From the IMG/VR virus record IMGVR_UViG_3300021959_000024: a DNA stretch of 20,000 nt. The stretch is one strand, 5' to 3'. A model generated the notes under the pieces. The model did no database searches. It was not told where the DNA came from and worked only from the letters and a program-made list of their open reading frames with translations. Position 1 is the stretch's first letter. Each line of letters starts with the position of its first letter. The position numbers and the translations under genes are program-made. This DNA comes from an uncultured virus (IMG/VR IMGVR_UViG_3300021959_000024) (Duplodnaviria > Heunggongvirae > Uroviricota > Caudoviricetes). Shown here piece by piece: positions 2-14,699 of the stretch.

Positions 2-571
2 TTGATAGGTGATGGTCCTATTGATCCATCTAAAAGAAAGACATCAATCAAAACAATTGCAAACATGCTTAAAAAAGGTGCTATCCTTGGAGTAGCAGAA
101 GGCAATGGTGAAATAGGAATGAGAGCTTTAGGTAGACGATCAATCATTTGTGATCCAAGCATTCCTGGAATGAAAGACAAAATCAATGCTGAGGTCAAAG
201 GAAGAGAATGGTTTAGACCATTTGCACCGATAATATTAGAAGAACACTTAGATGGATTCCAGTCATCCTCATTTGATAACTTAGAATATATGGCTTATGC
301 TGTTCCAGTAACAGATGAGTTTGCTGAGAAGTATCCTGCTGTATGTCATGTGGACAATACAGCCAGAGTTCAATTGTGCAATGATGAAAATAGCACAGTA
401 TACAAAATTATGAAAGAATTAGGAACACCATTGCTAAACACCTCTTTCAATATTCAAGGGCAACCTATAATTGCTCGAGAATCAGAGGCATTTGATATGT
501 TAAACAGTGGCGTCTTAGACGGCATTGTCGTGAATGGTGTCCTATATAAAAAACCCAAAAGTGATAAATAA
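2..571 (+). CDS. Carbamoyltransferase (NodU/CmcH family), C-terminal part; 5'-truncated by the window
   Basis: Motifs E-x-G-x-RALG-x-RSI, KGREWFRPFAP, HVDNTARVQ and LLNTSFNIQGQPI are typical of the carbamoyltransferase C-terminal domain. Confidence 0.9.
   Translation: MIGDGPIDPSKRKTSIKTIANMLKKGAILGVAEGNGEIGMRALGRRSIICDPSIPGMKDKINAEVKGREWFRPFAPIILEEHLDGFQSSSFDNLEYMAYAVPVTDEFAEKYPAVCHVDNTARVQLCNDENSTVYKIMKELGTPLLNTSFNIQGQPIIARESEAFDMLNSGVLDGIVVNGVLYKKPKSDK
563..570 (+). promoter_or_regulatory. T4 late-promoter-like box (GATAAATA)
   Basis: One mismatch to TATAAATA; lies 6 nt before the 5' end of the predicted structured RNA and overlaps the upstream stop codon. Confidence 0.5.
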
Positions 572-576
572 GCGTA

Positions 577-681
577 GTTCTTGTGAGACTCAGTGGGGAC
601 TGGATCTAGAGGCAAGTGTTTAGTCAAACTAAGCAGATGGAATTGACGGGATTTATCGTGGGGTTCGACCCGTCCAAGAAC
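577..681 (+). ncRNA. Candidate structured non-coding RNA of unknown family
   Basis: Closing helix GTTCTTG(577-583)/CAAGAAC(675-681). Internal hairpins CAGT-GGGG-ACTG(591-602), TGTTTAGT-CAA-ACTAAGCA(617-635) and GACGGG(645-650)/CCCGTC(669-674). GC-richer than the flanks; promoter-like box before and terminator after. Confidence 0.6.
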
Positions 682-699
682 ACTTAGAAGGTTTTTTAG

Positions 700-725
700 A
701 GGTGCCAAATTGGCACCTTTTTTTT
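700..725 (+). terminator. Rho-independent terminator
   Basis: Perfect 8-bp stem AGGTGCCA-AAT-TGGCACCT followed by a T run. Confidence 0.85.
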
Positions 726-748
726 CGTTTGAAATTTGTGATAGGAGT

Positions 749-768
749 GTGTTGAATAACATCAACAC
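749..768. repeat. Inverted repeat upstream of the early promoter
   Basis: GTGTTGA-ATAACA-TCAACAC (7-bp arms, 6-nt spacer). Confidence 0.6.
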
Positions 769-12972: not shown

Positions 12973-13205
12973 TGGCCAACATAATGAAGAAGTTTTGGTT
13001 ATGGTTAAAGTCATTATGGTCAACAACTTATACAATACAAGTGTCATACGATAACGTATGGGGCAATGAGGACGATAAGATATACAAAGGCGTCCAAAAG
13101 ATTCACAAACAGAACTTTAAAGAACTCCATTTCACAGACTCAAACAAGAACTTAGTAGTCATTAGAGGATCTAATGGCTTAAAATATATAATAGAGGTAG
13201 AATAA
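12972..13205 (+). CDS. Hypothetical protein (77 aa)
   Basis: TAATG coupling on both sides; amphipathic Trp-rich N-terminus. Confidence 0.65.
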   Translation: MANIMKKFWLWLKSLWSTTYTIQVSYDNVWGNEDDKIYKGVQKIHKQNFKELHFTDSNKNLVVIRGSNGLKYIIEVE

Positions 13206-13585
13206 TGTATCAATTTTTTATAGGTATCATTATTGTGTTAGGTCTCGGAAGCTATTGGCTATATGACCAAAACGTAACACTTAAAGAGAACAACGTAAAA
13301 TTAGAATTTGCTGTAGAAGAACAGCGAGCAGCATTTGATGCTATGAAAGAATCGTATGAGAAACAAGGTGAATCATTACGACAGTTATCAGAAGCAAATG
13401 CAAGAATTGAAGCAGAGAAAGATCAATACTTAGACATCTTTCGAAGACATAATTTAGATAAACTAGCTTTAGCAAAACCTGGGTTAATTGAAACAAGAGT
13501 TAACAATGGAACTAAAGGAGTACTGGAGGATTTACAAAATGATAGCAAGAACATTGCTGCTATTGATGACACTGCTAACAATTAG
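13205..13585 (+). CDS. Putative inner-membrane spanin (Rz-like)
   Basis: N-terminal TM helix (FFIGIIIVLGLGSYWLY), then a coiled coil and KPGLIE...NNGT; overlaps a downstream lipoprotein gene. Confidence 0.7.
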   Translation: MYQFFIGIIIVLGLGSYWLYDQNVTLKENNVKLEFAVEEQRAAFDAMKESYEKQGESLRQLSEANARIEAEKDQYLDIFRRHNLDKLALAKPGLIETRVNNGTKGVLEDLQNDSKNIAAIDDTANN

Positions 13586-14039
13586 TGGGTGTTCAATATT
13601 TGGCGAAAAGAAAGTAGAGATTGTAACAAAGCCTGTCAAAATTGATATAATTCAACCTACACTTCCAAGAGAGATGCAGCTAGGGGTTCCTAATGTATAC
13701 GTTGTGTCTGAGGCTATTATAACTAATCCATGTAAAAAAGTATTACAAGAAGATGGATCCGAAAAAAGACCTAAAGCATGTGATCAATCGGAAAGAGAAA
13801 ATCCTGAGTGGCCAGTTGGATACACATACTTAGATAGATTCCTGGACGAAATGAAAACTCTTAACGATGGTAGCGTAGTATTTGTCGCAATGACTATTAA
13901 AGATTACGAAGTAATTTCAGCTAACATGCAAGAGATTAGACGTTATGTTAGAGAGTTAGGTGAGGTGATAGTTTATTATAGAAATGTTACAATTAATGAC
14001 GAACCAGCCGTAGCTATCGAATCGGAAATAAATAAATAG
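13539..14039 (+). CDS. Putative outer-membrane spanin lipoprotein (Rz1-like)
   Basis: SD GGAGGA before ATG 13539. Signal MIARTLLLLMTLLTISG-C with lipobox; C-terminal DYEVISANMQEIRRYV...VIVYY. Confidence 0.7.
   Translation: MIARTLLLLMTLLTISGCSIFGEKKVEIVTKPVKIDIIQPTLPREMQLGVPNVYVVSEAIITNPCKKVLQEDGSEKRPKACDQSERENPEWPVGYTYLDRFLDEMKTLNDGSVVFVAMTIKDYEVISANMQEIRRYVRELGEVIVYYRNVTINDEPAVAIESEINK
14031..14038 (+). promoter_or_regulatory. Late-promoter-like box (AATAAATA)
   Basis: One mismatch; overlaps the upstream stop; followed by SD AGGAGG. Confidence 0.5.
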
Positions 14040-14338: not shown

Positions 14339-14674
14339 ATGGCACAGGACATAGAGCACTTATATAAAGTCATTGATAAGTTAGATACAGCAATAGAAAA
14401 ATTGTCCGATGTGTCTACCGACATTAAATCTATACTAGCAGTTCATGAACAAAGACTTGACCAAACTGAAACAATTATGGAAAGACATTTTGTTCAAATG
14501 GATGCAGTTCACAATAGGGTATCATCTCTAAGAGACGATATGAATGCAACTCAAAAAGAGCTTATTGAGATGATTAACGACATCAATAAATGGCGCTGGC
14601 AGGTGATGGGTGCAGCAGCTGTTATTGCTGCTTTAATTTCTATGATTAGTGAGATAATGCCTGCATTGAGTTGA
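14339..14674 (+). CDS. Coiled-coil protein with a C-terminal TM helix (XhlA/holin-like architecture)
   Basis: Heptad-rich body followed by KWRWQVMGAAAVIAALISMI. Confidence 0.65.
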   Translation: MAQDIEHLYKVIDKLDTAIEKLSDVSTDIKSILAVHEQRLDQTETIMERHFVQMDAVHNRVSSLRDDMNATQKELIEMINDINKWRWQVMGAAAVIAALISMISEIMPALS

Positions 14675-14699
14675 CCTGTAACGCACGTTACTGTATAAT
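14671..14699 (+). promoter_or_regulatory. Sigma70-type promoter for the primase-nrd block
   Basis: TTGACC-N17-TATAAT, with TG just upstream of the -10; palindrome within the spacer. Confidence 0.8.

Follow-up and report, generated by a model that had tools for sequence, protein, structure and literature searches.

The window analysed here is a 20-kb (20,000-nucleotide) fragment of an uncultured T4-like myophage (IMG/VR record IMGVR_UViG_3300021959_000024), and at positions 563–725 of its + strand lies a free-standing gene for a non-coding RNA of ~150 nucleotides (nt). The window opens with the C-terminal 189 codons of a carbamoyltransferase (open reading frame (ORF) 2..571, Pfam PF16861), whose stop codon, TAA at 569–571, falls within the late-promoter box of the RNA. 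The gap that follows (572–856, 285 nt) is the largest intergenic gap of the window, the next largest measuring 84 nt, and ends at a further ORF (857–1222). The RNA belongs to a large family found on viral contigs only, and compensatory changes among 62–64 distinct relatives are decisive support for its predicted fold, a four-helix junction.

An earlier note, made from the letters of the window alone, had described at this site a GATAAATA box, a 7-base-pair (bp) helix GTTCTTG/CAAGAAC enclosing three hairpins, two TGGGG motifs and a strong intrinsic terminator. All of these are present (TGGGG at 594–598 and 659–663), and the terminator, with ten pairs, is the best-scoring terminator-like site in the window. 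Its statement that no credible + strand ORF lies here also holds: 572–856 contains none of at least 30 amino acids, and the + strand ORFs by which it is overlapped, three in number, have 23–29 amino acids. A mechanically called minus-strand ORF of 104 amino acids (454..768) overlaps the gap. With a G+C content of 48.6%, the RNA core ranks at the 99.2nd percentile among 105-nt windows.

The evidence for a more-than-chance fold is weak when the window is taken by itself. The core (574–684, 111 nt) folds at −34.6 kcal/mol with z = −1.90, and 9 of 200 shuffles fold equally well; for the core together with the terminator, z = −3.01 and 1 of 200 shuffles does so. The + strand is taken as the RNA strand because the helices include G–U pairs, which form only when this strand is read as RNA, and because its minimum free energy (MFE) is the lower of the two (−50.0 vs −41.5 kcal/mol for the minus strand). 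Between two lineages of the phage species there are no substitutions in 557–817, 12 in 1–571 and 8 in 857–1222.

Relatives of the RNA on viral contigs

Exact-word searches with a 28-mer and a 24-mer from the window returned only five near-identical copies, three on viral and two on metagenome contigs. These copies lack any substitution in 557–817 and therefore hold no covariation information. The 14-mer GTGGGGTTCGACCC occurs in at least 120 unrelated stretches, and a covariance model built from the single sequence (R1) found no family member in the 80 that were fetched. Synteny through the carbamoyltransferase led to 11 distant loci (37–44% identity) and synteny through the downstream ORF 857–1222 to six (46–48% identity), with no RNA at the expected place in either set. 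Among 80 loci anchored on the helicase gene (54–81% identity), R1 gave full-length matches in eight, all on the helicase strand and immediately 3′ of the helicase gene. On the strength of these eight matches the RNA belongs with the helicase gene, the carbamoyltransferase being an intervening gene in the lineage of the window. The window and its five near-identical copies decided nothing by themselves; the helicase-anchored relatives altered this.

A degenerate motif derived from nine sequences occurs in at least 120 viral stretches. A second covariance model (R2), built from seven sequences with the window included, fits all 80 of the motif-selected loci that were fetched, over the full length and with scores of 47.5–101.6 bits; the window, as one of the model-building sequences, scores 101.6 bits, and the other 73 or more score 47.5–87.7 bits. 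The motif has 58 matches in 596 gigabases of prokaryote genomes, none of which fits R2; this result controls for the specificity of the search and also indicates that the family is confined to phages. Three family members gave no blastn match among 50,697 GenBank phage records, and a loose pattern found none in five cultured phages. R2 also matched none of ten whole cultured phage genomes, a negative that means little without a positive control. In cultured cyanophages, mazG and a small ORF occupy the site 3′ of the helicase gene and leave no spacer there. The RNA belongs to a large family, carried on viral contigs only, of uncultured aquatic T4-like myophages, and it usually lies right after a gp41-type helicase gene.

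Neither the window nor the loci of eight relatives contain a match to any of the 4227 models of Rfam 15 at the gathering threshold. In E-value mode the window gave only terminator and spacer noise (E up to 10, in 450–900), and the loci of seven relatives gave two weak, unrelated matches outside the RNA (E up to 1). Word searches of open-access text found no paper describing an equivalent RNA; the paper on the related phage Melnitz (PMC9004378) describes, where it deals with transfer-messenger RNA (tmRNA) and ssrA, a two-piece tmRNA and a glutamine riboswitch, not this RNA. The RNA family and its fold are new, with no match in Rfam, by ARAGORN or among GenBank phages at the sensitivities tried; the first two of these searches had been proposed in the earlier note as a check on novelty.

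Four-helix junction and predicted transcription unit

The fold is a four-helix junction in which P1 is the closing helix, P2 and P3 are hairpins that vary in length and sequence across the family, and P4 is a bipartite arm (Table 1). P1 has 7 bp in the window and up to ~12 bp elsewhere and ends in a constant G–C pair. The joining strand J1/2 consists of 2 nt, a conserved U first, whereas the longer strands J2/3 and J3/4 read AGnGGCA(A/C)G and include GGAAU(A/U), respectively. In P4, a 6-bp P4a is followed by a 5–6-nt A/U-rich bulge on the 5′ side only and by a 3-bp P4b that closes the invariant 7-nt loop UGGGGUU; P4a continues directly into the 3′ strand of P1. Together the junction strands, the P4 bulge and the UGGGGUU loop hold ~30 conserved unpaired bases. 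The motif GGTTCGA, which the earlier note had placed inside the last loop, is indeed present at 662–668, but its CGA is the 3′ strand of P4b (656–658/666–668), and because these bases are paired the true apical loop is TGGGGTT at 659–665.

In the model-fitted alignment of 64 distinct rows, 93.0% of cells pair, compared with 36.6–40.0% when the partners are slid, 27 of the 31 pairs change on both sides, and none of 500 shuffles reaches the covariation score. A model-fitted alignment leans towards its model, and the count was therefore repeated on an alignment made by MAFFT only. Here, with 62 distinct sequences, 98.9% of the cells of P1, P4a and P4b are paired (37.4–45.9% with slid partners), 13 of the 16 core pairs change on both sides, and again no shuffle out of 500 reaches the score. 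RNAalifold, unaided, recovered P1, P4a and P4b, with compensatory changes at 16 of its 19 pairs. Covariation among collected homologues, which the earlier note had suggested looking for, is thus present.

Table 1 Features of the RNA gene, by position in the window
Feature	Position	Strand	Basis
T4-type late-promoter box GATAAATA (NATAAATA form)	563..570	+	Read in the sequence; promoter function inferred
Predicted transcription start	576	+	~6 nt after the box, by T4 late-promoter geometry
P1 5′ strand GUUCUUG	577..583	+	MFE; 6/7 pairs covary, 97.9% of cells pair (MAFFT alignment)
J1/2 UG, U conserved	584..585	+	Family consensus
P2 hairpin, GGGG loop 595–598	586..607	+	MFE; covariation in model helices 2 and 3; arm differs between family members
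J2/3 AGAGGCAAG, conserved junction strand AGnGGCA(A/C)G	608..616	+	Family consensus
P3 hairpin, variable arm	617..635	+	MFE; helix 5 covaries, 83% of cells pair
J3/4 GAUGGAAUU, includes conserved GGAAU	636..644	+	Family consensus
P4a 5′ strand GACGGG	645..650	+	100% of cells pair, 4/6 pairs covary
A/U-rich 5-nt bulge, 5′ side of P4	651..655	+	Family consensus
P4b 5′ strand UCG	656..658	+	3/3 pairs covary, 98.9–100% of cells pair
Apical loop UGGGGUU, 7 nt, invariant	659..665	+	Invariant in nine model-found sequences
P4b 3′ strand CGA	666..668	+	Covariation; part of GGTTCGA
P4a 3′ strand CCCGUC	669..674	+	Covariation and RNAalifold
P1 3′ strand CAAGAAC	675..681	+	MFE, covariation; 0 unpaired nt after P4a
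Linker between junction and terminator, unconserved	682..697	+	Comparison of relatives
Intrinsic terminator, stem 698–720 and T run to 725	698..725	+	10 pairs, 5 of them G–C; best-scoring terminator-like site in the window

A T4 late-promoter box spans −13 to −6 relative to the transcription start. Within 60 nt upstream of the RNA, a late box is found in 66 of 67 distinct loci (49 with NATAAATA and 17 with CTAAATA), and the 67th has only 3 nt of upstream DNA. The distance from the end of the box to the first pair of P1 is mostly 10–11 nt, and 6 nt in the window. At seven loci (L241 (1373), L276 (1464), L268, L269, L271, L275 and L244) it is 21–32 nt, and an extra small hairpin lies between. 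According to PMC2984593, NATAAATA is the reported late promoter of cyanomyoviruses and TATAAATA that of T4.

A hairpin with a T run follows the junction after 22–44 nt in at least 51 of the 67 distinct loci; the true number may be higher, for the simple script used did not pick up the terminator of the window itself. The modelled transcripts measure 131–177 nt, with a median of 147.5 nt. Both box and terminator recur in relatives with differing flanking genes, which upholds the earlier proposal of a stand-alone late RNA (~105–150 nt in the note, ~150 nt here) with a late-type promoter and a terminator of its own. The promoter and terminator roles themselves we infer from sequence.

A divergent variant at locus L187 (3958–4082) lies on the minus strand, opposite to the helicase gene. 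It has TATAAATA, GGCAAG, GGAAAAG in J3/4, the UGGGGUU loop and an extra hairpin in the P4 bulge, and it shares a bidirectional terminator with its neighbours, towards which it is convergent. R2 gives this variant and similar weak matches in L183, L184 and L185 only 14.9–15.7 bits. Judged by these motifs, the family is wider than R2 detects.

Gene neighbourhoods across the family

All convincing genes of the window are on the + strand. They encode an endolysin-like hydrolase, a DUF6267 protein, baseplate and tail proteins, spanins, a primase, a nuclease and a ribonucleotide reductase. The DUF6267 protein has matches at 35–41% identity in Kyanoviridae-type phages, among them Phage C48C1, Methylophilales phage Melnitz, Pelagibacter phage HTVC008M and cyanomyophages. 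On a sister contig (G003) the order upstream is DNA polymerase B, an asparagine-synthase-like gene, UvsX, a 2OG-Fe oxygenase, the gp41-type DnaB helicase and then the carbamoyltransferase. Parts of the stretch were found in RNA libraries labelled freshwater, aquatic, estuary and salt marsh.

The gene directly upstream of the RNA differs between loci. It is the helicase gene itself in nine loci and an ORF of ~70 amino acids in 50 of 78. A NodU/CmcH-type carbamoyltransferase lies between the helicase gene and the RNA in the lineage of the window (G003:C1 15871–17469, L153/L154; window 2–571) and in L287. The ~70-amino-acid ORF (for example L258:1224–1436, with 49 other loci; core FMRHLNLGGGFDGWTPSF) has no Pfam or PHROG match and is absent from the fetched DNA of the window lineage. 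Its co-occurrence with the RNA is not strict, because seven helicase loci carry the ORF without an R2 match; at least some of these seven carry a divergent RNA on the opposite strand.

Downstream, the ORFs of 78 loci fall into 24 unrelated clusters, and the loci that were read show a late box of their own after the terminator. The largest cluster (18 loci; for example L237:1644–2303) encodes a HAD-like protein of ~219 amino acids with an N-terminal DMDQT (DxDxT) motif; it matches PHROG 415, 'polynucleotide kinase', at 1e-10 and has no Pfam match at E ≤0.001. A link to RNA repair through this protein was considered and dropped, since the protein is of the HAD type with DxDxT and shows no kinase P-loop. 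It was likewise dropped for the DUF6267 protein of the window and its neighbour, for which no solved homologue was found. The suggestion that the RNA is a substrate for a nearby ligase/nucleotidyltransferase module found no support: nothing seen here ties the RNA to such a module, and the downstream genes differ.

After the terminator in the window, the spacer 728–802 reaches to the next promoter. Like the RNA, it shows no substitution between the two lineages, and it contains a 7-bp hairpin (749–755/762–768) and a third TGGGG (789–793). Near-consensus promoters of the sigma-70 type (TTGAC(T/C), 17 nt, TATAAT-like) lie at 803–831, 1200–1228, 1589–1617 and 14671–14699, where they precede small uncharacterised ORFs. 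The first two, which follow the terminator, read TTGACT-17-GATAAT and TTGACC-17-TATAAT and have the spacer start TCAAATCAA in common. By their sequence, the small ORFs with such promoters that come directly after the late RNA gene resemble a cassette of early genes. Elsewhere in the window, two overlapping ORFs (13205–13585 and 13488–14039) match Rz-like spanin PHROGs, and a holin-like or DUF7201 ORF (14339–14674) lies nearby, which suggests a lysis cassette within the structural region.

Possible roles of the RNA

We consider that the RNA would be a late transcript that begins a few bases at most from P1, under its own NATAAATA promoter, and ends at its own terminator, and that it would act in trans as a folded recognition platform. 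The invariant junction and the UGGGG loop or loops would bind a putative partner that is conserved across the carrier phages or their hosts, a protein being likelier than an RNA, and the variable arms P2 and P3 would be only struts or sites of self-association. We put the probability that this is a trans-acting late RNA presenting its junction and loop(s) to a conserved partner at roughly one half. Trans action and recognition by something conserved are suggested by the ~30 invariant unpaired bases, the varying arms, the late promoter and terminator and the restriction to phages. Three further observations favour action in trans: (i) the downstream genes are unrelated, (ii) P1 and the terminator coexist in the MFE structure of 35 of 44 modelled transcripts, and (iii) the L187 variant is convergent to its neighbours.

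Several points weigh against this interpretation. The search pattern fixed GGCAMG, GGAAYWG, TGGGGTT and CCR, so the invariance of those elements is independent only in the nine model-found sequences, in which GGCAMG and UGGGGUU were already invariant. An aptamer or a ribozyme would likewise be marked by a junction with ~30 conserved unpaired bases. The window contains ten ATAAATA boxes, all on the + strand and several of them immediately 5′ of the start codons of structural and lysis genes, and this number is not above chance (7.59 ± 2.77 in shuffles, 45 of 200 of which reach ten); the strand bias is partly due to the A-rich + strand. Furthermore, contigs from the RNA libraries X1 (1–1280) and X4 (1–1227) run unbroken from the upstream ORF through the RNA and the terminator into the downstream gene. 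One X8 contig, the only one of its kind, ends at 725 and another starts at 802; in each of the four runs RNA-library contigs connect the ORF with the RNA, and in two they cover the whole region. Because such contigs are assembled and may contain DNA, they neither map ends nor prove transcription, they cannot show strand, level or timing, and they speak neither for a discrete transcript nor against one.

The connection of ORF and RNA on these contigs, together with the overlap of box and stop codon in the window, would fit an element in the 3′ untranslated region of the upstream mRNA, acting as a stabiliser or processing site. Such a role is improbable, given that the upstream gene varies while the distance from late box to P1 stays fixed and that the RNA of L187 lies on the strand opposite to its neighbours. 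An antisense small RNA, whose UGGGGUU loop would pair as a seed with an AACCCCA-like site in host or phage RNA and alter translation or stability late in infection, appears rather unlikely, although it ranks second after the recognition platform. Seeds are typically displayed in this manner, on a loop that is exposed, invariant and 7 nt long and tops a covarying stem, and a free-standing RNA with its own promoter and terminator suits this role. However, AACCCCA is absent from the + strand of ~53 kb of this phage, ACCCCA does not occur in the 20-kb window and occurs once in the 33-kb sister contig, and a simple seed would not need the ~20 further conserved junction bases. In a riboswitch or attenuator, a junction aptamer would have the terminator gate read-through from the late promoter into the downstream genes. 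The order of promoter, conserved junction with many invariant unpaired bases, terminator and same-strand genes is what such an element would show, and the RNA resembles known four-way-junction aptamers: like the SAM-I and yybP-ykoY riboswitches, it is a ~100-nt four-helix junction with conserved junction bases followed by an intrinsic terminator. It differs from them in lacking a model match (no Rfam riboswitch in the window at E ≤10 or in the relatives at E ≤1), in lacking mutually exclusive helices (P1 and the terminator share the MFE structure of 35 of 44 transcripts, and no conserved alternative pairing or anti-terminator was seen on inspection) and in the 24 unrelated clusters of downstream genes, with their own late boxes in the loci read. 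The L187 member points at the 3′ ends of the genes beside it, which leaves no gene downstream for it to regulate. We therefore regard regulation in cis as clearly unlikely.

Phages and metagenomes are rich in small ribozymes, and a compact junction with many invariant unpaired bases could belong to a self-cleaving or otherwise catalytic RNA. This is quite improbable here: Rfam 15 gave no match to twister, twister-sister, hatchet, pistol, hammerhead or HDV-like ribozymes, and a promoter-to-terminator unit with nothing to process would be an unusual setting for a self-cleaver. The tRNA mimic of the earlier note, a decoy for tRNA enzymes, anticodon nucleases or RNA-repair enzymes, is highly improbable and largely refuted by the comparative data. 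The RNA does share the strand topology of tRNA, with a four-way junction, a 7-bp closing helix in the window copy, 2 nt after P1 (the conserved U first, as at tRNA positions 8–9) and no nucleotide before the return to P1, on which P4 stacks; in this there is a grain of truth in the note's 'tRNA-like closing stem', and the window copy does have GGTTCGA. The note was also right that no canonical cloverleaf forms: ARAGORN found no gene in the window or in eight related loci, and no tRNA, tmRNA or Y-RNA-like Rfam model matches (tRNA and tmRNA at E up to 10). The likeness ends there. The RNA lacks cloverleaf proportions, an anticodon loop, a conserved T-loop and CCA after P1; P1 varies from 7 to ~12 bp, and J2/3 has 9 nt instead of 1. 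The P3 loops, of 3–10 nt, are mutually unrelated and are not 7-nt anticodon loops. Relatives have GUUGGC, GUUGUC, GUUCAA or GUUCCG where the window has GUUCGA, the CGA is a helix strand, and the base equivalent to A58 is unconserved, so that the proposed T-loop does not stand either. A likeness to the 5′ part of tmRNA was dropped because no tmRNA model matches; in the window there is neither an ARAGORN nor an Rfam tmRNA match, nor a G3–U70 pair in P1. That the whole fold is a chance structure in a spacer, without function, might have been read from the core z of −1.9 and the 9 of 200 equally good shuffles, but it is refuted by the covariation at 13 of 16 core pairs in 62 sequences and by the fit of R2 to 80 of 80 viral loci vs 0 of 58 genome matches, and its probability is negligible.

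A further possibility concerns the number of loops displayed. In the window's subclade (eight distinct sequences) P2, like P4, ends in UGGGG, its stem covarying, so that each molecule has two UGGGG loops; UGGGG at P2 is conserved only there, and the conservation of both makes the pair of motifs listed in the earlier note a meaningful feature. The P2 apex of many main-clade members instead carries self-complementary hexamers, CUGCAG in 16 cases, UGCGCA in 8 and GUGCAC in 2, on at least seven different stems (for example L253, L258, L264 and L265), at the position where the window copy has GGGG. Palindromes of 6 nt occur in 33 of 64 P2 segments, 23 of them centred on the apex, compared with a shuffled mean of 16.6 (maximum 29), and in 10 of 64 P3 segments. 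The excess in P2 is a lead rather than a result, because the rows are related by descent. From their sequence, the P2 hexamers could form a kissing-loop dimer displaying two UGGGGUU loops. The free UGGGGU oligomer associates as a G-quartet, and the UGGGGU loops might do so between molecules. The working unit would then be an assembly showing two or more UGGGG loops, reached in two ways; its place would be in the assembly or packaging of virions, or it would serve as a multivalent sponge. We hold this proposal as tentative and unlikely. We know of no late self-assembling RNA particle in T4-like phages.

Returning to the trans-acting recognition platform, the closest parallels in kind are the orphan RNA motifs of phages and metagenomes (Weinberg/Breaker type; manA, wcaG), which are likewise compact, defined by covariation, rich in conserved unpaired bases and without an assigned function. 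Unlike cis elements of the manA/wcaG type, the present RNA has a promoter and terminator of its own, as predicted, and no constant downstream gene. With T4-type late units (TATAAATA/NATAAATA, read by the gp55/gp33/gp45-modified RNA polymerase) it shares the same 8-bp box at promoter distance; those units encode virion and lysis proteins, whereas here the unit behind the predicted promoter is only a small folded RNA. The T4 stable RNAs C and D (species 1 and 2) are small, lie in the tRNA cluster, are processed from an early/middle tRNA precursor and have no known function. They resemble our RNA as small non-coding RNAs of a T4-type phage and, in a comparison by description, are set apart from it by its late box and by the absence of tRNA genes within ~50 kb (ARAGORN). 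Like phi29 packaging RNA (pRNA) and the ROOL and GOLLD RNAs, which function as assembled particles, it is a phage-borne folded non-coding RNA, many members of which have the self-complementary P2 hexamer for putative self-association. To our knowledge, pRNA does not occur in T4-like phages. ROOL and GOLLD (bioRxiv 10.1101/2024.12.08.627333) are much larger and show no sequence or model similarity to this RNA.

These comparisons establish newness for the family and its fold, not for a mechanism. Because it is small (~100 nt) and well defined by covariation, the fold is ready for use in probing experiments, in screens for ligands, in pull-downs and in structural studies. T4-like myophages rank with the most abundant viruses of aquatic habitats, and protein genes are assumed to make up their late programme. 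Here a conserved structured RNA, in a putative transcription unit of its own, occupies a fixed site at the border of replication and late genes in at least 64 distinct uncultured phages. With so many invariant unpaired bases, specific binding is almost certain, and the partner would add an RNA-based step to the T4-type infection cycle.

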